Shown here: positions 5,546 through 23,019 of the stretch, piece after piece | How the letters are laid out: every line of letters begins with the position of its first letter | Numbering within the stretch: the stretch's first letter is position 1 | From: Chlamydiota bacterium | Lineage (GTDB): Bacteria; Chlamydiota; Chlamydiia; Chlamydiales; SM23-39 | Assembly (NCBI GenBank): GCA_048498835.1 | Contig: JBEHXF010000029.1 | Coordinates: 1-24,035, forward strand | Direction of reading: 5' to 3' | DNA: 24,035 nucleotides | Notes under the pieces: generated by a model | What the model was told of the DNA's origin: nothing | Database searches by the model: none | The model's input: only the letters and a program-made list of their open reading frames with translations | Program-made: the position numbers and the translations under genes

Positions 5546-8500
5546 TTAAAAAGAGTATCCAATTTTTCCATAGAATTGATTGGAACTATAGCCACTTCCA
5601 AATTCTCCGTCGTAGCTAATGGAGCCGTAACCGTTCCAGTTCGTTTGCCAAAAGAGTTCAATGGCAGGAGAGAAGAGACTTTGCGCAGAGGTAAAGGACT
5701 CAACAACAAAGGATGTAGGAGCGCTCACGATGGCTGCATTGACCTGACCTACGTTATGGGGCTTTTTGTAGACGTAGCTCAACTTCGCTTGGGCGATGAA
5801 GGTTCCCCAGTTGTAGGTAGTTGTATTGTACCCATTGAGTCCTGTCTCGAAGCGCAACATCCACGATGTGCGAGAAGAGATCTTCATATTGTAGGGAGCG
5901 GCTCCTTTTTCTGAGTAGCTGGGATCCCATTCGCAAACCCAGTCTAGCAAAGCGAAGGGTTCGATGGTGCCAGTGGAGATGTTGAAATCGTAACCTGTAC
6001 CAAAATGGAGATCGAGTTGTCCCGCATGGTAGGAGCTTTTCGCCGTCTCATCAAATCCTGGGTAAGAAATAGTCCGTTTTTGATCGACGCCCATATATTG
6101 ACCCCAAATGGCTGCATCGAGGTAAAAATCGGAAAACGATTTCATTCCATAGACGCTTATGTAACCGGCATTCAGCTGACTATTGCCCACGGAGTTATGC
6201 TGTTGGATGGATGTGTGAGCATATCCAGCAAGCGTTCCGATGCATCCCTGATCGGTATTGCCGTAATCATAGGCGACAAAAAAGCCACCGTTATTGAAGT
6301 GAAAGCTCGGGGTTTGATCTTGAGAATTTTGACTATTAAAACCGCCAAAGCCCGTTGCCCAAATTTGGGAGGAAGTGTTCTTGGGTGGTGCATACATGGT
6401 GTCGCGGGGGGAGGGATTAGAATGAGCAGGGCGGCTCATAGCTAACTCTTCGTTTTCTGCCAAAAGAGCCGTTTCTTGGATCTGTCGATTTTTTTTCTGC
6501 TTAGAGGCCAATCGACGTTTGGTAAAGTGGGTTCCGAGCGACTCGGAAAACATAAACATCACGTTTTGGGCAGCAAAGGTGGAAATAGAAGTTCTAGCGG
6601 GGCTAATTGCTTCCAAAGCGTTTTCATATTCTGAAAAAGGGAGATTGTTTAGTAATTCATATTGATCCCTCAATCCCAATGATTCAGCCTCTGGACGTAG
6701 GGCATTGAGATAATTGGCCACTCTTCTATTGTTACCACGAAGTCCTTGCGTGGAAAGAACCGGAGGAAGATCGCTGGAGAATTCAAACTGCACATAAGTG
6801 GGCATTCCAAGGGGTAAATAGGAGAGTGAGTAACTCGTCGGAATGAATTGTGGAAAAAGGACAGAATCAAAAGTACCTGTAAGACCCGAAGAGGTAAGAA
6901 GGACGTATGATCCGGGCAAGGCGTTTGAGTCTAGATCGATCTCTAAAAAACCAGCCAACGCGGCAGTGTCGGTCACTGAAACAGAAGAGGTGCCTTCGGC
7001 ATCGATTTCGATATGCACGAGGCTTCCTAAGCTACCGCCTCCTTCGGGATTTAAGGTCAAACTGCGAAGAGTGAGTATTTGTCCCGGGTCTGGAGAAATT
7101 ATTCCAGAGTTGACAAAGACCATTCTATCAATGGTTCCATTTCCGCTTAATGTTCCCCTTTGTCCTGTTATTCTACAGACCGAAACTTGTTTTCCTATTG
7201 CGGACCCGATTAGGCCATTTACTTTGAAGTTTGCACTATTGATTGTGAAGTTTCCTTGAAAATCGGTTGTTCCGTTGTAAACAACCGTTCCATTTCCATC
7301 AATATAGATGTCCGTGCTTCCTCCTCCAAAAGATGTGTCATCGACAAATGAGACCTCTTCACCGAGTGTCAACAGATCGTTGGTGTCTTCCGCAGTCAAG
7401 AAAAGTCTAGAGCCTTGCCTCATAAAAATACTATTTCCTAGAGCTGATCCAGGATTTCCTGGTTCTGCTCCTGAAGCTCCCTCACCCCCGTTTCCAGCGA
7501 TTGCGAGTGTATTGACTGTATTGAAGAGAGTAGGAACACCTGAAAGCGCTTTTATCGTTAAATCTATACCACTATCGATAAAGATTGCCCCCCCAAGCCC
7601 GCTTCCGCCGCCGCCTCCTCCTCCCCCTGAACCCGCACTGACAACTGTAGCTCCGATTCCTCCAGAACCTCCGCCGAGATAGCCTATATCCATTCCGCCT
7701 GGAGACGCCGTGGAGCCATTAGTAGGCCCCCCGCCTCCGCCTCCACCTCCGCCTAAAGAATTACCACCGTTAGCTAGGGTGTCACCCGAACCATTGACTC
7801 CGCCGCCGCCTCCACCACCACCCGTTCCTCCTACACCACCTTCGACAGTATAGCCGCTCGCTTCATCACTTCCTAATCCAGCGCCACCGCCGCCGCCGCC
7901 ACCGTAACCTCCATTTCCGGCTGCTCCACAGATTAAATTGGATATTCCGTTAATGACAACACCGCCGCCGCCGCCACCACCGCCATCGGCTCCAGATCCT
8001 CCTGAGGGGGTAAAGCTAAATCCAGGTGCCCGGCCTCCTCTAGGTGGTTGTCCTTCTGTACCGCCAGCGCTTCCTCCGCCGCCCCCACCTCTCTCTCCGC
8101 TCTCTGTCATCGCATTTCCACCACCACCACCGCCACCATTCGCCCCGGGAGCATAGCCACCACCTCCCATGCCAGGCGAATTGACAAGGCCATAACCATT
8201 TCCTGCTAGTCCATCCTCTTGGTTGCCATCATCTTGATCTCCCCCGCCTGTTCCGAGATTCATAAGCATCCCAATGGTTGCGCGAGATCCGAAGCCACCT
8301 CCACCTCCGCCCCCGCCTCCTAGCGGATCATCAATAGGAGTAAGAACAGTCCCGCCATTTCCACCAAAACCGCCCCCGCCTCCACCCCCAGAACTACCGA
8401 CTACGGAAACACTTCCTCCATTACCCCAAAAACCACCTCCACCACCCGCTCCCTGAGTGCCTGTCCCCCCATCGTCGGAATAAGCTCCTCCAGTTCCACC

Positions 8501-9028
8501 TTCAGCAGTACAATTTTCGATCGATACATTCATTAACGTAATGGCAGGACTTCCAGAGATCAAAAAATTACTGGGTGCGTAGATGGCACCCCCAGCCCCT
8601 AGCCCACCGCCACCGCCAGAGATTCCATTTCCGCCATCTCCTCCTTTAGCTGTTAAGTTTTGAAACTTCATGTTTTGGATGGTGACAATTCCTGCAGGAA
8701 TAAAAAAACCGCCATACGTGCCTCCGTTCCCATCAATCGTAGTGGTAGCGGTGGAGCCAGAATTGCCGATGGTGATATTGACATTTAGCATGGAGTTATT
8801 GACGACCGGCAGAAGTCCATTGAGTTCAATTGTCATCGGCATGTCAAAAACGATCGCATAATCCTCTGCTGACGTTGATAAGTTTGTATTCATGGTGTTT
8901 ATGCACCATCTCAGATCGCCTGAATCTCCAAAGCCGCCGGGATTTAAGTCTGTCGGTAGGGATACATGAAGTGTTGTTAAGCCGAATAAGGAGTGAGCTG
9001 TGAAGAGAAATAGCCAATTTTTATACAT
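5546..9028 (-). CDS. Glycine-rich autotransporter (Pmp-like), paralog 1
   Basis: Signal-like N-terminus from ATG 9028, long Gly-rich passenger with GGAIY/GGAIF, and a C-terminal beta-barrel ending YGKIGYSF. Confidence 0.88.
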   Translation of the reverse strand: MYKNWLFLFTAHSLFGLTTLHVSLPTDLNPGGFGDSGDLRWCINTMNTNLSTSAEDYAIVFDMPMTIELNGLLPVVNNSMLNVNITIGNSGSTATTTIDGNGGTYGGFFIPAGIVTIQNMKFQNLTAKGGDGGNGISGGGGGLGAGGAIYAPSNFLISGSPAITLMNVSIENCTAEGGTGGAYSDDGGTGTQGAGGGGGFWGNGGSVSVVGSSGGGGGGGFGGNGGTVLTPIDDPLGGGGGGGGGFGSRATIGMLMNLGTGGGDQDDGNQEDGLAGNGYGLVNSPGMGGGGYAPGANGGGGGGGNAMTESGERGGGGGGSAGGTEGQPPRGGRAPGFSFTPSGGSGADGGGGGGGGVVINGISNLICGAAGNGGYGGGGGGGAGLGSDEASGYTVEGGVGGTGGGGGGGGVNGSGDTLANGGNSLGGGGGGGGGPTNGSTASPGGMDIGYLGGGSGGIGATVVSAGSGGGGGGGGSGLGGAIFIDSGIDLTIKALSGVPTLFNTVNTLAIAGNGGEGASGAEPGNPGSALGNSIFMRQGSRLFLTAEDTNDLLTLGEEVSFVDDTSFGGGSTDIYIDGNGTVVYNGTTDFQGNFTINSANFKVNGLIGSAIGKQVSVCRITGQRGTLSGNGTIDRMVFVNSGIISPDPGQILTLRSLTLNPEGGGSLGSLVHIEIDAEGTSSVSVTDTAALAGFLEIDLDSNALPGSYVLLTSSGLTGTFDSVLFPQFIPTSYSLSYLPLGMPTYVQFEFSSDLPPVLSTQGLRGNNRRVANYLNALRPEAESLGLRDQYELLNNLPFSEYENALEAISPARTSISTFAAQNVMFMFSESLGTHFTKRRLASKQKKNRQIQETALLAENEELAMSRPAHSNPSPRDTMYAPPKNTSSQIWATGFGGFNSQNSQDQTPSFHFNNGGFFVAYDYGNTDQGCIGTLAGYAHTSIQQHNSVGNSQLNAGYISVYGMKSFSDFYLDAAIWGQYMGVDQKRTISYPGFDETAKSSYHAGQLDLHFGTGYDFNISTGTIEPFALLDWVCEWDPSYSEKGAAPYNMKISSRTSWMLRFETGLNGYNTTTYNWGTFIAQAKLSYVYKKPHNVGQVNAAIVSAPTSFVVESFTSAQSLFSPAIELFWQTNWNGYGSISYDGEFGSGYSSNQFYGKIGYSF

Positions 9029-9078
9029 GAGGAAGCCTAAATTATTCTTGGCTATCGTAAGGTGTAAAAAAAAATTAT

Positions 9079-9945
9079 TCAATGACTAAAGCTGGGAAGT
9101 AAACTGAAGTCGATTCTTGGAGAGCTGTAATTCGGTCTCATCGCGAAAGCGATCGTTGCATAACGAGCGTTTCCACTCTCTAAAACTATGTGGGGAGTGG
9201 GGTAGATGGAAAATTCTGCGAGTAAAGTTCCGGGAATTAAAAGAATAGAATTCTGATCTTCTTGCCGTAAAAACTCTCTGTGAGCTGAAGAAAAATCTTC
9301 TGCTATGAAAGAGGATTTATAAGGAGATAAAAGAAGGGAGTCATTGTCTGTACTATCGAGAAAAAGAGAAAAAGCGGTGCCATCGTAATGAGGGATTGTA
9401 GCGAGATAAGAGGGGAGATATTTGATCACTTTGAGGAGAAGCGGAGGGTGCCCGTCTAGGGAAGAAAAAATCGAGTCGATGCCCAATTCCGTGGCCGCCT
9501 GATTAAACAGGCTTCCATATGGTTTTTGGATCTGTAAGCATGCCTCAAAAAAATGGAAAATTTCGGGGGTTTTTTTGAATTCTGGATAATGAGACCAGAT
9601 AAATTCATGGAAATGAGTCGAATAATAGAAAGAGATGTGGTTTCTTTTTTCTCTATTTGACTCATCGTAGAAACCAAAAAAATCGGTGGAGTAATAATTT
9701 TTGGCTTTTGAGCGGATAAAGCGCTCTTTCACGAGAAATAACTTTTGTTTCCATTGCGGATTTCTCTGAAGAAATTCAATGAACTCATCGAAAGAAGCAT
9801 AGAGGGCATTGAAAGCGATTGTTCCATTGTTTTGGTCGCAAACTTCAGCATAACCAGTGCGTTCAAATTGTTCAGCAAGTGGTATGTTAGAATGGGATGA
9901 AAAGGCCAGGAAAGTTGATAGAAAAAAAATCTTTTGAATGAACAC
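9079..9945 (-). CDS. 2OG-Fe(II) oxygenase-like protein with signal-like N-terminus
   Basis: HxD (PHYDG), distal His (PTPHIV) and RYATIAF match the facial triad and 2OG-binding Arg. Start is uncertain; GTG 9945 avoids overlap with the divergent gene. Confidence 0.68.
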   Translation of the reverse strand: MFIQKIFFLSTFLAFSSHSNIPLAEQFERTGYAEVCDQNNGTIAFNALYASFDEFIEFLQRNPQWKQKLFLVKERFIRSKAKNYYSTDFFGFYDESNREKRNHISFYYSTHFHEFIWSHYPEFKKTPEIFHFFEACLQIQKPYGSLFNQAATELGIDSIFSSLDGHPPLLLKVIKYLPSYLATIPHYDGTAFSLFLDSTDNDSLLLSPYKSSFIAEDFSSAHREFLRQEDQNSILLIPGTLLAEFSIYPTPHIVLESGNARYATIAFAMRPNYSSPRIDFSLLPSFSH

Positions 9946-13458: not shown

Positions 13459-13561
13459 AAAAATATCAGCGCAGAGTGTAACCGAAAAGAGAATCATTTC
13501 TTTTTTCTCTGCGTCTCAGCGCTGATATTTTTCTCGTTTCTCTTCCTTAACTCGAATCGAA
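13459..13561. repeat. CGCAGAG-type palindromic repeat, copy 2, between convergent genes
   Basis: 14-bp perfect inverted repeat AAAAATATCAGCGC (13459-13472) / GCGCTGATATTTTT (13519-13532); 22-bp identity with 1168-1189 on the opposite strand. Confidence 0.82.
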
Positions 13562-15745: not shown

Positions 15746-15859
15746 CGCGCCTCAATCACACGTTCGTTTTTCAAGAAGATGCCCTTTTTGCCATATAGAG
15801 TTTATACTAGAATACAAATTCCATATCGGAACGTTTAAGAGGAACATTCCAACATGGGA

Positions 15860-15917
15860 CTCACCTCCGGGCCCAGAATTTTCTGGGCTTTATTGGAGGT
15901 GGAGAGACGCATTTAGA
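15860..15917 (-). repeat. tmRNA 3'-end duplicate (att-like site D) within a fold-back
   Basis: TGGAGGTGGAGAGA at 15894-15907 equals 22651-22664. It is preceded by CTCACCTCC and the GCCCAGA/TCTGGGC hairpin. The flank CGCATTTAGA resembles TGCATTCAGA at site C. Confidence 0.85.
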
Positions 15918-16065: not shown

Positions 16066-19000
16066 ATGCAAAAAATCCTTTTTCACGCACAACTAATGTT
16101 TGCTGCCTGTATTTTATCGACCCATTCAATAGACGCCGCAACGAGACTTGTCATAAGTACTTCAAATGATCAGAACATGATGGGTACGTTGCCTTATTGG
16201 CTTCTAAATGCTGAAGACGGCGATATCATTGACTGTCATTCGATTGCAGGACAATCGATTCTTTTAACCTCTTCGCTCCCTGCGATCACGAAAAGCTATA
16301 CGATTCAAGGCGCCGGAATCACCATCGATGGAGCGAATAACTATCAAGCTTTTCAGGCGGCCTCAGGAACGACCGCGATCAATCATGTTATTATCCAACA
16401 TGCAATTTCTAAAGGAGGAAATGGTGGTAATGGATATTCGGGTGGTGGAGGTTCTGTCGGAGGAGGAGGAGCTCTTTACATCCATGGAGATGCTAGTATA
16501 ACCCTAATGACTTCTAGCCTTCTCAACAATACGGCTCAAGGTGGTGATGGAGGCTCCGGAAATTTGAATGGAATCAGTGGCGGCGGCGGCGGTGGTGGAT
16601 TTGGAGGGGGATCTGGGGGAAATTGTGTGCTCTTCGTGACCACAGGTGGGGGTGGAGGGGGGCATAGTAATGGTGGAAAAGGGGGAACTGACCCGGATAG
16701 TATCTCGAATGCAAATGGTAGTAACGGAGTTTTTTTTGGCGGCGGTGGTGGCGGCGCTGGGGGGAATTCAATGTCACATGGAGGCGTAGGTGGAAACGCA
16801 GCTCTCAATGGCGCATTTATAGGTGGCAACCAATCGGCCGGTAATGGCGGAGGGGGAGCAGGAGATAGTGAAAATGGTATTTCGGCGAGCGGCGGAGCGG
16901 GAAGCGGGGTGGCTGGAGATGGAGGCAGCGGGATTGGATCTGATTCTTTATTTGGAGGCGGTGGTGGCGGAGGCTCTTCAATGGAAAGCTCAAATCCTGG
17001 AGGGACTGGTGTAGGAGCTGCTGGAGGTGGCGGCAGCTCTATTGCTTCAGGAGGAGCGGGAGGGGTTCTCGGCGGCGGCGGTGGAGGCGGTGGTGTTATA
17101 GGTATTGGAGGGACGGGAGGATTTGGAGCTGGCGGTGGCGGGGCAGTCACTGGCGGCTTAGGCGGCGGTGGATTTGGAGCGGGAGGGGGCAATGGAGGAT
17201 CGGATCCAGTTGGAATAGCAGGTGGGGGCGGTGGTTCCGGATTGGGAGGAGCCATTTTCATCCAAAGCAATGGCAGCTTAACGATTGTAGATGCTGTGCA
17301 AATTTCTGATAATACAGTCATTGCTGGACTCGGAGGATCTTCAACTAGTTCAACCGACCCCGACTACATACCAGCTGGCGATGGAGCTGCTATGGGTTAT
17401 GACATCTTTGTCCGTGAGCAAGGGTCGATTACCTTTAATCTGAGCAATACATTAACGATTGAAACTCCTATTGAAGGAGATCAAACGAGCGGGCCGTCTA
17501 CAAGCGGAGGACTCAATAAACTCGGAAGAGGTAGATTAAACCTAACTGGGGAAAATACCTATTCAGGGACTACAGCAGTGGATGGCGGTACTCTCAACTT
17601 AAATGGAAGTGTGATCGGAAGTACTATAGTTGGCGTTGGAGCCACCTTTTCAGGCAATGCCACAGTGTTGGGCAATCTTACAAGCTCGGGCGTTTTAGCG
17701 CCTGGGAACTCGATTGGGACAATCCATACAACCGATCTGCTATTGCATTCATCCGGTCGACTAGAAATTGAAGTAGCCTCTGATGGGACAAACGATCTCA
17801 TTGATGCGACAGGAACGGCAGAGTTAGCTGGCCGCCTGGAGATGGATATCGATCTAGCTGCACCAACTGGAGCCTACACAGTTCTTACATCAGCGGCTAT
17901 TATAGGTTCTTTTAACTCTATTGCATTTACTGGAATCACGCCAAAGTATGCCATTTCCTATCTGCCAGATGGAGCTCCTACGTATGTACAATTTAATTTT
18001 TTAGGATTTCCAATCCTCCCTACGCAAGGTCTCTCTGGAAACAATTTAAGAGTTGCCCAATATCTCAATCAATTAATTCCCTACGCCAAATCGCTTGGGT
18101 TAGGAGATCAATATATTCTATTGGAGGGCCTTTCTGATTCTGCCTATCAAAACGCACTTCAATCAATCAGTCCTACAAGAAATTCGAGTCTCACATTCGC
18201 TGCGCAAAACATGATGTTTATGTTTTCCGATTCGCTTGAGTCCCATTTTACCAAAAGAAGGCTCGCTTATAGTCAAAAGAAATCGAGTCAGAAAAAGGAG
18301 CTAAGCTTCTTAGCAGACGAGGAACTTTTGGCAGCCAATCAACTCCCTCGTAAGACCTCCTCTTCTCCCAAAACTTCTCAAATTTGGGCAACCGGTTTTG
18401 GAGCTTTCAGCCGTCAAGATTCTCAAAATCAAACACCCGGCTTTAATTTCAATAGCGGCGGCCTCTTTATAGCGTATGATTACGGAAACACCGATCAAGG
18501 TTGTATCGGCGCGCTAGGTGGATATGCCCACTCATCGATTCAGGAAGACCATTCGATGGGAAGCGGCGATATCAATGCCGGATTCCTCAGTATCTACGGG
18601 ACACGATCTCTGTCTGATTTCTTTGTCGATGTGGCTATTTGGGGACAATGTATGGGAGTGGATCAAAAACGGAATATTTTCTTTCCGGGATTTGACAGCA
18701 CCGCCAAGAGTTCTTATCACGCAGGCCAACTCGATCTCCATTTTGGCACCGGCTATGATTTCAATCTCTACACTGGGACTATCGAACCCTTTGCGCTCTT
18801 AGACTGGGTCTGCGAATGGGATCCGACTTATTCAGAAACAGGCGCCACTGCCTATAATATGGAAATCTCATCCAAAAGTTCGTGGATGTTGCGCTTCGAA
18901 ACTGGTTTAAATGGTTATAACACCACCACATTCAGTTCAGGAGTTTTAATTGCTCGAGCAAAGTTAAGCTATGTTTACAAAAAGCCTCATCATGTAGGAA

Positions 19001-19200
19001 CTCTCAATGCAGCAATTGTCGGCGCTCCCATCTCCTTTTTTGTCGAAGCCTTTAGCGCCGATCAAAGTCTTGTTTCTCCTGCCGCCGAACTGTTCTGGCA
19101 AACAAATTGGAATGGTTACGGATCGATTAGCTATGACGGAGAATTTGGAAGCGGTTACACCTCGAATCAATTCTACGGAAAATTAGGCTATTTCTTTTAG
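16066..19200 (+). CDS. Glycine-rich autotransporter (Pmp-like), paralog 2
   Basis: Signal peptide, Gly-rich passenger with GGALY/GGAIF, a PATR-like repeat (LNKLGRGRLNLTGENTYSGTTAVDGGTL) and a beta-barrel ending YGKLGYFF. Confidence 0.9.
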   Translation: MQKILFHAQLMFAACILSTHSIDAATRLVISTSNDQNMMGTLPYWLLNAEDGDIIDCHSIAGQSILLTSSLPAITKSYTIQGAGITIDGANNYQAFQAASGTTAINHVIIQHAISKGGNGGNGYSGGGGSVGGGGALYIHGDASITLMTSSLLNNTAQGGDGGSGNLNGISGGGGGGGFGGGSGGNCVLFVTTGGGGGGHSNGGKGGTDPDSISNANGSNGVFFGGGGGGAGGNSMSHGGVGGNAALNGAFIGGNQSAGNGGGGAGDSENGISASGGAGSGVAGDGGSGIGSDSLFGGGGGGGSSMESSNPGGTGVGAAGGGGSSIASGGAGGVLGGGGGGGGVIGIGGTGGFGAGGGGAVTGGLGGGGFGAGGGNGGSDPVGIAGGGGGSGLGGAIFIQSNGSLTIVDAVQISDNTVIAGLGGSSTSSTDPDYIPAGDGAAMGYDIFVREQGSITFNLSNTLTIETPIEGDQTSGPSTSGGLNKLGRGRLNLTGENTYSGTTAVDGGTLNLNGSVIGSTIVGVGATFSGNATVLGNLTSSGVLAPGNSIGTIHTTDLLLHSSGRLEIEVASDGTNDLIDATGTAELAGRLEMDIDLAAPTGAYTVLTSAAIIGSFNSIAFTGITPKYAISYLPDGAPTYVQFNFLGFPILPTQGLSGNNLRVAQYLNQLIPYAKSLGLGDQYILLEGLSDSAYQNALQSISPTRNSSLTFAAQNMMFMFSDSLESHFTKRRLAYSQKKSSQKKELSFLADEELLAANQLPRKTSSSPKTSQIWATGFGAFSRQDSQNQTPGFNFNSGGLFIAYDYGNTDQGCIGALGGYAHSSIQEDHSMGSGDINAGFLSIYGTRSLSDFFVDVAIWGQCMGVDQKRNIFFPGFDSTAKSSYHAGQLDLHFGTGYDFNLYTGTIEPFALLDWVCEWDPTYSETGATAYNMEISSKSSWMLRFETGLNGYNTTTFSSGVLIARAKLSYVYKKPHHVGTLNAAIVGAPISFFVEAFSADQSLVSPAAELFWQTNWNGYGSISYDGEFGSGYTSNQFYGKLGYFF

Positions 19201-20039: not shown

Positions 20040-20186
20040 AAAATCCTATTTTTTGAATTTTCTGCAGGTAAGTATAGTCGATCATTTGTAATTAAGAATA
20101 GATACGGTTGCTTGACTACTTTCTGAGTAGTAGGAAGCGATTTGTGAACATCTCTTCCGATGATGCATCGGTGGGGACGCCGGTAG

Positions 20187-20274
20187 CGCAAAGCAAACTG
20201 TTGCCTTGCTCACCTCCAAAAAAAAATTGGGAAAACCTGGGTTTGTTTTTTGGAGGTGGAGAGATGCATTCAGA
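20187..20274 (-). repeat. tmRNA 3'-end duplicate (att-like site C) plus a copy of the tmRNA trailer
   Basis: 20187-20264 is a diverged direct repeat of 22583-22664 and includes TGGAGGTGGAGAGA at 20251-20264. Confidence 0.92.
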
Positions 20275-20302
20275 ACCGGCGACCAACGCAAGTTCACTTG
20301 TT

Positions 20303-21107
20303 TTAGTCTGCTCGTAAAAGAACGTTATCTAATATATACTGATATGAGAATAAGATATGAGTAGACGAAACTGCGTTTTGTTGTAACATATTAAGGGTCC
20401 AAGTAATTGCTTGGATATCAGAGTCTGTAGTAAGTAGCTGATATTCACCAATATTTACTGCTATTTTCTGAGCGGTTTCTCGGTTTTGAATCGTCCATCC
20501 TTCCGTGATACGTACAATACAACATTTTCCTGCAACATGAATAATATTGGGTCTTCGCGTTAAAGGAATATCTGGTTTTTCTCGATAAAATTCATTCAAA
20601 TGTGAAAGAAGGGTTGTGGGTAGTATGCTTTCGGTTGCATAAATTATTTTGAGAGGCCAGTCCTGATAATTTGGAATATTTAAAAGAGGCATCACGCGCT
20701 TATCCAAGGGCGACATTAAAGGAACGGAAGCTATTCCTTCCAAGGCATCAAATAGTTTGTTCCTTGTTAAGGGTCGATTTAACCGAAACAACGCCTAGAG
20801 TACCTTCTATTGGTGAAAATGATTTTTCTACTCCAGGTGTCGGCTTAAAACGTGGGGTCGTATCCGTTGTGATGATGATGTCTAATTGTCTTGATTCATT
20901 TTCTTTTTCATCAAAGACAAACCCTCCGAGAAAAACATTACATTTAGATGGAACGTGATTACGTAAAAACTCGGCATAAACACCTTCACGTGATAACCCA
21001 ACATCAGATGTATTGGGAAAGATGGAGGCGGCATCGGCCTCCCCTCGAAGGACTGCTGCTATTTTCTCATAATATTTACGCAGTCGTGAAAAGATGGGTG
21101 GGGGCAT
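20303..21107 (-). pseudogene. DUF6602-like (PD-(D/E)XK-type) protein split by a +1 frameshift
   Basis: N-part has GLSREG..EFLRNHVP, GGFVFD, SRQLDIII and SVKSTLNKEQ. Removing one A at 20756-20758 gives KEQLFDALEGIASVP and joins both track ORFs into 267 aa. Confidence 0.75.
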
Positions 21108-21184
21108 TTTTGGCAGTCTTCCTTATGAAAAAGAACCGGGAAAATTCCTAGGTCTACCATCTTTATGGATTGGGGGACGTTCGG

Positions 21185-22261
21185 TCATTTTTTGTTTCGC
21201 TCAGTTTGGTTTTTTTTTGATTTTTCCTTGGATAATTCAGCCTCAATCTGTTCAATTGTTGGCAAGCTGGTTTGTAGGTCATTGGGGAGAGACTCGATTA
21301 GCTTTGTTGTATAAGTCGCAACTCCAATTGGACGTCGGTTTTCTTGAAGAGTATATTCAACCATCAACTTCTTTTTTGTTTTGCATAGGATCATTCCAAT
21401 AGAAGGTGCGTCGCCAGGACCTTTAAGTTGAGCGTCGACTGCACTCAGATAAAAACCAACTTTCCCTGCATACTCAGGCTTGAATGGACCGCTCTTTAGT
21501 TCCACAACCACAAATCGCTTCAGCTTGAAATGATAGAACAGCAGGTCAATTAAAAATTCCTCCCCCTCAACTTCAATTCGATACTGTCGTCCGACAAAGG
21601 CAAAGCCAGTCCCTAACTCGACTAAAACTTTTTGAATATGTTCGACGAGCCCATTTTCGATTTCTGCTTCATCGGCCTTCTCTCGCATTCTTAGGAAATC
21701 GAAGCAGTAGGGGTCTTTGAGTTCAGCTTGAGCTAGATCTGAATCAGGGTGCGGGAGGGTTACTGCAAAATTTGTAATGGCTTTCCCTTGCCGGCTGTAT
21801 AGATCTGACTCAATCCACATTTCCAGAGTGTTGCGACTCCAGCCATTCTCAATTGTCTTTTTAGCATACCAAAATCGCTCTTCTATAGTTGTTAGCTTCT
21901 GGAGGAGAAGAATATTGTGCCCCCACGGAATTTGGCCAACAGCCTGTTGGCTAATTGCCAAATCCGGGTATTCTCTAGCAAATTGGACCATGTATTTGAT
22001 GTTAGTCAGTGAAAAACCTTTCATATCGGGAAACGCTGATCTAAGGTCTTTGGCAAGAGTTTCCACTGTTTTTGATCCCTAACCCTCATTTTTTTGCTTT
22101 AGAAGAATTTTTGTCCCTATTTCCCAGTAGAGACTAAGTAATTCACAGTTGACTGCTAAAGCAGCTTTGATCTGAGATGTGCGAATCCTCTCTCTCAAGA
22201 TTTCAAGTAACTCGGGATAGTCGATAGGGATTAAGTTTTGACTTTGGGTTGTTGTATTCAT
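21185..22261 (-). pseudogene. yhcG: YhcG/DUF1016 PD-(D/E)XK nuclease-like gene with an in-frame TAG
   Basis: LYWEIG, GFSLTNIKYM, KDPYCFDFL, ELGTGFAFVGRQY, IDLLFYH and VELK. The two track ORFs are in frame across TAG 22079-22081 (EG*GSK, where the family typically has GWG). Confidence 0.88.
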
Positions 22262-22436
22262 AACATGCCAATCATCTTTTTTGATTAAAGCATTGCAGTG
22301 TATCGGTGGGTAGGTAAAAAATCAAAAAAGATCTATGAAGTTCTGAAGCGCTAAAAAAGCGGGAGTTTTTAAATAAGACCTTTCAGAACTTGTAACTAAT
22401 GATTGTAAGCTTTTCTTTATAAGTCGATTGAGTGCT

Positions 22437-22469
22437 TAAAAGAGGGTTGGATGCTGATTGCATCCAACC
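22437..22469 (-). terminator. Probable intrinsic terminator after tmRNA-end copy B
   Basis: 10-bp stem GGTTGGATGC/GCATCCAACC (22445-22469) followed on the minus strand by CTCTTTT. Confidence 0.6.
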
Positions 22470-22472
22470 AAT

Positions 22473-22485
22473 TGGAGGTGGAGAG
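22473..22485 (-). repeat. tmRNA 3'-end duplicate (att-like site B)
   Basis: TGGAGGTGGAGAG is identical to 22651-22663. Confidence 0.85.
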
Positions 22486-22650
22486 CAGTCCTCCGGCGGG
22501 CGAAGCGCCCGTCCTGCCAGGCCGGTCGGTCTCGGTCGGTTTTTCGATGCGAAAAACATCGACCTTGGGCTCAATTCTCTCACGCAAGCCAAACTATTGG
22601 CTTGCTCACCTCCAAAAAAAAACCCGGGAAAACCCGGGTTTGTTTTTTTT
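22486..22650. other. GC-rich multi-hairpin non-coding spacer downstream of tmRNA
   Basis: Hairpins GGGCG-AAG-CGCCC, GGTCG.GTTTTTCG-ATG-CGAAAAAC..CGACC, GCAAGCCAA-ACTA-TTGGCTTGC and CCCGGG-AAAA-CCCGGG flanked by A and T runs. Confidence 0.8.
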
Positions 22651-23019
22651 TGGAGGTGGAGAGAATTGAACTCTCGTCCTTAGCAAGCTCGATCAACAGT
22701 CTCTACATGCTTAGAGCCTTATTGTAAGATAGCCTTGCTGCAAGGTGCGGCACTTGGGGCTAAATAAACCTTCTAGTTTCTCGGACTCCCTATTAGATGG
22801 TTCTAGAAGTTAGGGTCCATACCAAGATGTATGACGGTAAGATTCTGAAACTCTCGGTCTGATCTCAGGCTACCGCCAACCTTAAGCCGCTAGGCCTTCG
22901 AGTTGGAACTCAGAATTGTGTTCTGCGTTTATTAGTTAATCGGATTTTTTAGGAGGCCAACCGATCATCCTCCGCATGCAACCGATGCCTTACTCCCAAG
23001 TCGAAGCCTTGACACCCCC
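22651..23019 (-). ncRNA. ssrA: tmRNA
   Basis: 5' GGGGGTGTCAAGGCTTCGAC and 3' GAGAGTTCAATTCTCTCCACCTCCA form an acceptor stem with G3:U70 and a T-arm; CCA is not encoded. Tag frame 22926-22882 reads AEHNSEFQLEGLAA*. Confidence 0.96.

Follow-up and report, generated by a model that had tools for sequence, protein, structure and literature searches.

Work on E. coli describes tRNA-linked repeats (TLRs), which have been known since 1978 and are given no known function (PMC8144298). They are defined by an 18–19 bp repeat of the gene tail and occur in one to five copies per locus; the paper covers the direct repeat, and the word "inverted" has no match in it (PMC8144298). The E. coli set comprises the 178-bp tyrT/tyrV repeats (RtT) and the lys, arg, serX and rrA/B/F repeats. 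According to the same paper, read-through transcription covers the rrn repeats (rrA/B/F), and processing then yields a small RNA (PMC8144298). A mobilome preprint reports raised coverage over tyrT/rttR, which it does not describe as circular DNA (10.1101/2024.07.17.603846). In IS608, a protein-bound hairpin carries a DNA guide at its foot and base pairing picks the target; extended pairing 3' of the hairpin can be engineered, and the intermediate is a ssDNA circle (PMC5934647). For islands at tRNA and tmRNA genes, a restored gene followed by its displaced tail is the standard signature (PMC4383910).

We analyzed a 24,035-nt stretch of DNA, hereafter the window, from a genome (G000) that is 97% complete. 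A first-pass annotation had noticed that TCAATTCTCTC (22571-22581) and CACCTCCA (22607-22614), put together, are exactly complementary to the final 19 nt of tmRNA (22651-22669). Our analysis confirmed this; the 19 nt extend to the discriminator. The 25-nt insert with a 9-bp side hairpin that it described between the two segments is present as AC, a 22-nt hairpin (22584-22605; 9 bp, 4-nt loop) and T as read along the window, and so is the A-run/CCCGGG-AAAA-CCCGGG/T-run stem (22615-22650). Its proposal of a long branched hairpin held when 22540-22700 was folded in silico on both strands, with z between -9.5 and -11.3 and 0 of 200 shuffles equalling each fold. The energies were -78.6 kcal/mol for RNA of the minus strand (z -9.5) and -50.7 (plus) and -55.0 kcal/mol (minus) for DNA (z -11.3 each). 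Structure runs on beyond this hairpin as far as 22472-22485, where the tmRNA tail is repeated in direct orientation. The split antisense is the left half of a 178-bp gene-less unit, itself containing no ORF, between the tmRNA gene and the tail repeat. The features are as follows.

22651-23019, minus strand: tmRNA (ssrA) gene, the target, with tag AEHNSEFQLEGLAA (ARAGORN; Rfam RF00023, 130 bits)
22651-22669, minus strand: 19 nt paired by the antisense arms, comprising the tmRNA T-loop (55-60), T-stem 3' strand, acceptor 3' strand and discriminator (sequence; folds)
22473-22650, minus strand: entire non-coding unit, 178 bp (direct repeats; homologous units; empty site in G005)
22615-22650, minus strand: spacer of A-run, GC hairpin and T-run, a two-way intrinsic-terminator-like stem that differs between units (terminator check; alignment)
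22607-22614, minus strand: antisense arm 1, complement of the acceptor 3' strand and discriminator (positions 66-73) (sequence)
22582-22606, minus strand: fixed insert of A, 22-nt hairpin 1 (22584-22605) and GT, a predicted protein-binding site (conservation)
22571-22581, minus strand: antisense arm 2, complement of the T-stem 3' strand and T-loop (positions 55-65) (sequence; tracks the host position-57 allele)
22534-22564, minus strand: core hairpin 2, a bulged stem (folds; two-sided change in 5 of 12 pairs)
22490-22523, minus strand: core hairpin 3, GC-rich (alignment; covariation)
22472-22485, minus strand: direct repeat of tmRNA positions 61-73 plus one A, the right end of the unit (repeat search)

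Behind tmRNA, the unit therefore reads terminator-like spacer, arm 1, hairpin 1, arm 2, hairpins 2 and 3, tail repeat. The arms are split at the boundary between T-stem and acceptor stem. The fixed insert is the family's most sequence-conserved part and has one covarying pair (GC/CG/AU).

Like the E. coli TLRs, the unit belongs to gene-less stretches of 100–200 bp that stand directly behind a stable-RNA gene, end in a copy of its tail and often occur in tandem. The K-12 TLRs also keep the order seen in the window, with a hairpin, an antisense T-arm, small GAA-loop hairpins and a repeat that starts in the T-loop. Among 12 K-12 genes at 4 loci, the antisense T-arm measures 10 nt at tyrV and 8 nt at tyrT, serX and argV, and lysQ has 10 nt against the T-loop; by eye, lysT/W/Y/Z and argQ/Z have only 5–7 nt or imperfect antisense, and argY is without a unit. 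However, the E. coli TLRs lack the fixed 22-nt hairpin and the full acceptor arm, and their target is not tmRNA. The tail repeat is 14 bp at the window locus against 18–19 bp in TLRs, although many relatives come close (start at 56 or 57). Homology searches against the E. coli units gave a best nhmmer E of 0.34, and blastn returned hairpin-level matches of 20–23 nt only (4 K-12 loci of the 10 named, rrn excluded). Judged from sequence, the window unit is a variant built like an E. coli TLR and cannot be called a member, because homology is undetectable, hairpin 1 is missing in E. coli and the repeat here is 14 bp. The literature searched held no description of the split antisense; older primary papers may mention the complementarity.

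A unit stands directly 3' of tmRNA in 5 of the 54 tmRNA loci from 61 related genomes (G000, G003, G011, G020 and G042; two families). More near-full-length copies, also in two families, came from a DNA search of 400 genomes of the phylum, and a tmRNA-specific pattern matched 20 stretches of named Chlamydiales-type genomes, which overlap each other and the other sets. Tandem arrays contain 2–4 identical copies, and some copies are displaced behind later islands. Multiple copies (2–4) occur in G003, G331, G295, G020, G380 and G353; the window has one intact copy. The DNA beyond the repeat in G000 aligns over about 150 nt with the sequence directly behind tmRNA in G005, a genome of the same genus, and such a trailer directly follows tmRNA in 5 of 54 loci. 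The G005 trailer corresponds to the DNA after the G000 repeat, so G005 shows the empty site, and the unit would bring its own terminator. In 14 tmRNA-type units, 96% of cells pair and 17 of 59 pairs show two-sided change. This level was reached by 0 of 500 shuffles, a test that kinship among units inflates, and slid controls gave 3–6 pairs.

At one locus in G020 (L051, G020:C5:199500-219400), 13 tmRNA tail repeats lie within 16 kb, and arrays of 215–216 bp units are interleaved with integrase-less cargo blocks that, by eye, carry LysR regulators, exporters and toxin-antitoxin-like pairs. A different element, a long bulged hairpin of about 120 nt with a conserved inner stem, lies directly behind tmRNA in L043 (G008), L064 (G037) and L015 (G040), and past the repeat in L083.

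Partial matches of the DNA search proved to be related units behind tRNA-Tyr, -Thr, -Lys, -Ser, -Leu and -Trp, with arms altered to fit each gene. G000 itself has units behind tmRNA, two tRNA-Leu, tRNA-Lys and three tRNA-Ser genes, and orphans on contigs C39, C46 and C70. Of 401 genomes of the phylum, 44 contain the exact hairpin-1 pattern; 40 of these, together with G000, belong to two families, and controls gave 0 matches. A metagenome scan returned at least 123 stretches. In the first 80 of these stretches and one viral locus, 63 of 81 distinct hairpin matches had a called tRNA or tmRNA end no more than 400 nt away. Pooling the loci gave 295 distinct gene ends, 130 of which have hairpin 1 within 120 nt and represent 19 gene kinds; being selected by the hairpin, this set gives no frequency. 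Our results show a conserved gene-less family that is real and widespread. Three pattern scans of a viral collection gave 0, 2 and 1 loci, all in coding or unrelated DNA without tRNA, and these were dropped.

In the 130 units, the own gene beats every tail of another kind for the arms in 97 (mean 16.9 vs 12.0 of 20), and the fit lies within the top 5% in 106; about a fifth of units are poor, and related units do not count as independent. Arms match perfectly (20/20) in 24 and at 18/20 or better in 60. They also track the allele at position 57, as A57 is opposite T in 23 of 26 units, and G57 is opposite C in 74, A in 21 and T in 8 of 104. Hairpin 1 interrupts the antisense between positions 66/65 in 70 units and 65/64 in 57, and is flanked by a fixed A and GT (GT in 118/130). 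A variant with a GA/GA mismatch opposite the T-loop occurs in 16 units and in the E. coli tyr and serX repeats. According to the first-pass annotation, an antisense without conservation or covariation in relatives would point to a one-off inverted duplication. Here it is conserved and covaries, and across the 19 gene kinds most arms fit the adjacent gene, so it is not such a duplication of the tmRNA end. The family refutes this reading, which has just the single-locus view in its favour and which we leave with next to no probability. In G000 (C20:18071-18400), two tandem units with different spacers and cores follow one tRNA-Ser, both matched to tRNA-Ser, and are two separate arrivals.

The tail repeat was found in 85 of 130 units (8 had too little flank), with a median unit length of 174. 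It starts at positions 56-60 in 78 of 85, and at 56 or 57 in 45, while T54 and T55 are almost never part of it (8% and 4% match). Cores can be nearly the same at different genes: a tmRNA unit (L132) and a tRNA-Thr unit (L140) share 91% identical cores with targets alike at 4 of 13 positions, and a tRNA-Ser unit (L270) and a tRNA-Ala unit (L305) share 97%. Among 88 cores, the nearest neighbour stands at the same target in 18 cases and at a different one in 9. L270 looks like a rewriting intermediate: arm 2 matches tRNA-Ser in the copy next to the gene, and the distal copy has the arm 2 seen in L305. Since near-identical cores stand at unrelated targets, we infer that the target-matching parts would be replaced faster than the core drifts, by copying. 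Replacement would not occur at every move: in L202 and L235, arm and repeat agree mutually and disagree with the gene, and a displaced G178 unit retains an arm of the A57 type, although the tmRNA of that genome has G57, so rewriting is not obligatory. Mobility of the units is strongly indicated. The tRNA cluster at L202 (3780-4762) also contains a tRNA-Ser-like 5' part fused to the right end of a unit, and one unit there has arms and repeat that fit another tRNA-Ser than the adjoining gene.

Where gene and repeat differ, the arm sides with the gene at 79 positions, with the repeat at 8 and with neither at 8. There is a bias in these numbers, since the gene was used to fit the register and many of the differences in the repeat reflect 3' decay. 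This count bears on a passive origin of the arms, according to which the unit moves or duplicates otherwise and the arms copy the neighbouring gene through fold-back synthesis and quasi-palindrome correction, guiding nothing. Arms would then follow the nearer inverted repeat, which is the gene; an uninterrupted palindrome runs from the gene tail through the spacer into arm 1, long perfect spacers accompany a good arm 1, and the 24 perfect copies fit as well. However, a conserved hairpin with its fixed A and GT flanks interrupts the copy at a constant place, and pure copying would not yield the GA/GA variant shared by 16 units and the E. coli tyr and serX repeats. We regard such a passive by-product as rather unlikely.

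Of 90 cores, 76 have the better fold on the tRNA-sense strand with DNA parameters (12 went the opposite way), and 65 do so with RNA parameters. As the bias appears under RNA parameters too, it does not separate DNA from RNA. Arm mismatches have little strand bias (G.T 97 vs A.C 71; 74 vs 71 without position 54). One of the two inferences in the first-pass annotation was an RNA switch competing with the tRNA-like domain. It is physically possible, as predicted pairing of the tmRNA acceptor stem falls from 0.997 to 0.0 when the transcript runs through the antisense. However, a terminator-like hairpin stands ahead of the antisense in the tmRNA transcript, and a transcript stopping at the U-run is predicted to keep its acceptor stem. 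Spacers of at least 35 nt have a T5 run in 61 of 84 units and acceptor arms matched at 7.0/8; with shorter spacers, the values are 6 of 46 and 5.0/8. In our reading, RNA-level pairing is costly and is either shielded or weakened, and this speaks for a DNA role; better correction of continuous palindromes also explains the association of spacer and arm. The switch is disfavoured because the terminator precedes the antisense and terminator-less units have weaker acceptor arms.

An RNA function could also take a wider form, in which read-through arms invade the T and acceptor stems and attenuate or decay the precursor, or a small RNA with a tRNA-like tail is released, as for RrB and RtT. The predicted loss of the acceptor stem, the better RNA fold of the sense strand and the read-through and processing of the E. 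coli rrn repeats (PMC8144298) agree with it. The order of terminator and arms speaks against it, and the patchy distribution (5 of 54 tmRNA loci), the 19 gene kinds and the tandem or displaced copies far from promoter-bearing genes fit a selfish element better. No Rfam family matched the unit at threshold; allowing E up to 10 gave only terminator-type chance matches, and RtT was not among the 32 weak matches. Taken together, we consider an RNA function quite unlikely. Four RNA runs contained only tmRNA pieces of other organisms and left the unit uncovered (all 12 candidate runs had <10% of words).

The tmRNA-tail 14-mer occurs 4 times in the window (15893, 20250, 22472 and 22650; 0.13 expected), and G000 has no further exact copy outside the window. 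Three neighbouring features are marked by these copies or adjoin them.

20265-22471, minus strand: neighbour outside the unit, a recombinase-less tmRNA-island remnant with a YhcG/DUF1016 gene and a DUF6602 fragment (domains; relatives)
20187-20264, minus strand: second unit copy, shortened and decayed, with tail repeat, spacer, arm 1 and hairpin 1 and no arm 2 (E 3e-17)
15858-15906, minus strand: third remnant, with tail repeat, short hairpin and 7 nt of arm 1 (repeat search)

Three blocks are stacked behind tmRNA between 15893 and 22650, each ended by a tail repeat. The first is the unit; the second, of 2.2 kb, has YhcG/DUF1016 and a DUF6602 fragment, and the third, of 4.36 kb, encodes a MYND-finger protein and a glycine-rich autotransporter. 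Neither larger block has a recombinase, and both end in a short motif common to the serine-recombinase islands of relatives. The left end of the 20265-22471 block is the sequence found directly behind tmRNA in unit-less relatives. In G295 (L321, G295:C1, 17400-18710), a 436-aa large serine recombinase (PF07508) lies directly behind tmRNA; the left end of this island equals that of the window block (22280-22471), and it resembles the Dehalococcoides DsiB islands. The block at 20265-22471 has the ends of a G295-type island, and these differ from those of the unit. A second palindromic repeat of about 35–40 nt sits in the hairpin 2 loop of several units (window 20140-20190; L051; L086; L093); it truncates the copy at 20187 and also occurs behind tRNA-Thr on C15 of G000.

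As in tRNA and tmRNA islands, including those at ssrA in Dehalococcoides with the DsiB serine integrase, the locus has a restored gene with a displaced tail, a T-loop junction and tandem stacking (PMC4383910 and PMC3146451). Unlike these islands, the unit is 178 bp long, has neither integrase nor cargo, carries an inverted copy of its target and has one core at many genes. It shares with integron attC (PMC5027507) and with CTX attP an imperfect hairpin, unpaired features and a folding strand bias. The GTTRRRY/RYYYAAC pair of attC, in which crossover falls within AAC, is absent from the stem ends, the only match lying in the end of the neighbouring island; AAC is opposite 55-53 in 16 of 130 units. 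No R-box consensus and no L-box or extrahelical-base pattern was recognised, one arm is the host gene itself, and the junction falls in the T-loop at 56-60 and not at the G|TT of attC. As to an integron integrase and cassettes, the window has no integrase ORF and the unit no ORF at all. The best dif matches reach 8/11 and 7/11 against XerC/XerD arms of E. coli type, from which chlamydial dif may differ.

The unit could nevertheless be a collapsed integrase-island remnant (attL and attR joined), or an attC- or CTX-type substrate of XerCD or an integron integrase. A gene followed by its displaced tail typically marks an island (PMC4383910), relatives carry serine- and tyrosine-recombinase islands at this locus, an island hot spot, and G000 has three tyrosine recombinases. 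A longer form with the same ends was not found around 76 metagenome loci or among 15 units with distant repeats, however, and the serine-recombinase islands end differently. One site-specific recombinase would not serve 19 targets at 4/13 identity, attC boxes and dif arms are absent, and the repeat leaves out T54-T55. We hold this origin to be distinctly improbable. The folded-ssDNA recombination substrate, the other inference of the first-pass annotation, fits as an analogy and is our best reading; the attC and CTX models that it named fail the motif tests, and no recombinase is tied to the unit.

In the search for a partner enzyme, the 21 scanned ORFs of the 36 listed for the window contained no recombinase or transposase domain. 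Around 76 of the at least 123 metagenome loci, no mobility gene was shared among 476 ORFs; clustering these yielded housekeeping genes, spurious ORFs that overlap tRNAs or the unit, and a pair of short GIY-YIG-like ORFs. Of the 15 units whose repeats lie far away, none was an enzyme-bearing long form, and by eye the enclosed cargo had no mobility enzyme. The G000 genome has no Y1, IS110, RT, large serine recombinase or resolvase match. It has one GIY-YIG protein of 611 aa, probably UvrC by its size, and three tyrosine recombinases (PF00589), judged by length and context and all on other contigs. Among hairpin-positive genomes, 14 of 44 have Y1 (PF01797), against 153 of 356 among the remaining genomes (Fisher p 0.19); Y1 transposases do not co-occur with the units. 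On C3 of G000 (L034, 1840-7167), a tRNA-Asn island encodes a 422-aa tyrosine integrase and, by eye, primase- and helicase-like ORFs.

Other designs were set aside. The mini-tRNA reading, with the arms as a copy of the tRNA 5' strand, fails because arm 1 carries A opposite U70, a position at which the tmRNA 5' strand carries G, and because the T-loop is present as its reverse complement. A tRNA primer-binding site was dropped, as there is no complement to CCA and no RT. IS110 bridge RNA and TIGR were set aside since both arms match the same strand.

IS608 is the closest working analogy. The foot-of-hairpin guide architecture of IS200/IS605 or REP/RAYT elements fits the unit, with binding and cleavage predicted only. 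Unlike IS200/IS605 (IS608) and REP/RAYT, the unit has no transposase gene, its guide is about 19 nt on both feet and not 4 nt, and its direct repeat is 14–20 bp. We lean, by slightly better than even confidence, towards the unit being a non-autonomous mobile element that acts as folded ssDNA, with the arms as a base-pairing guide and hairpin 1 as the predicted site of an enzyme supplied in trans. The guide role and the ssDNA route, taken for themselves, are likewise just on the probable side. In this model, the folded strand would be the tRNA-sense strand. Having bound hairpin 1, the enzyme would cut in the T-loop, some 10 bp away from the three-way junction. The unit, consisting of a new gene tail (56-73), terminator, guide and core, would be inserted at the cut, and the old tail would be pushed downstream as the direct repeat. 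Arrays may then arise through repeated insertion or re-entry of a circle. At a new tRNA, tail and arms would be rewritten by copying of the target, during insertion or in a later hairpin-templated correction. The terminator would keep the antisense off the tmRNA transcript, which could account for tolerance by the host.

We tentatively suggest, as a conceivable view that falls short of probable, that the units are a widespread and uncatalogued minimal mobile DNA with a natural 19-nt two-armed DNA guide on either side of a fixed protein-binding hairpin, T-loop insertion and a guide reprogrammed for each target, and that the E. coli TLRs are worn members or analogues. The units are a possible explanation for the unexplained tRNA-linked repeats of E. 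coli. The arms, fixed hairpin, T-loop junction, empty site and cores shared across targets allow the TLR puzzle to be tested as a case of mobility, and the 22-nt hairpin, folded together with its arms, could be used as bait for finding the enzyme. If the arms direct insertion, this would be a naturally reprogrammable, base-pairing-guided integration system with a long guide. Units inside tmRNA and tRNA island arrays also add spare attachment tails, which could mislead island mapping.

Other repeats were observed in the window. Regions 5546-9082 and 16066-19200 encode paralogous glycine-rich autotransporters in opposite orientation, whose last 824 nt are 74% alike; a close homologue lies behind tmRNA in G042 (L074) with the same upstream gene. 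Intergenic palindromic repeats are found at 1132-1509, 2955-2974 and 13459-13539. They include an 80-bp direct repeat whose copies, 206 bp apart, flank an inverted pair. One hairpin family is common to 1132-1189 and 13459-13539.
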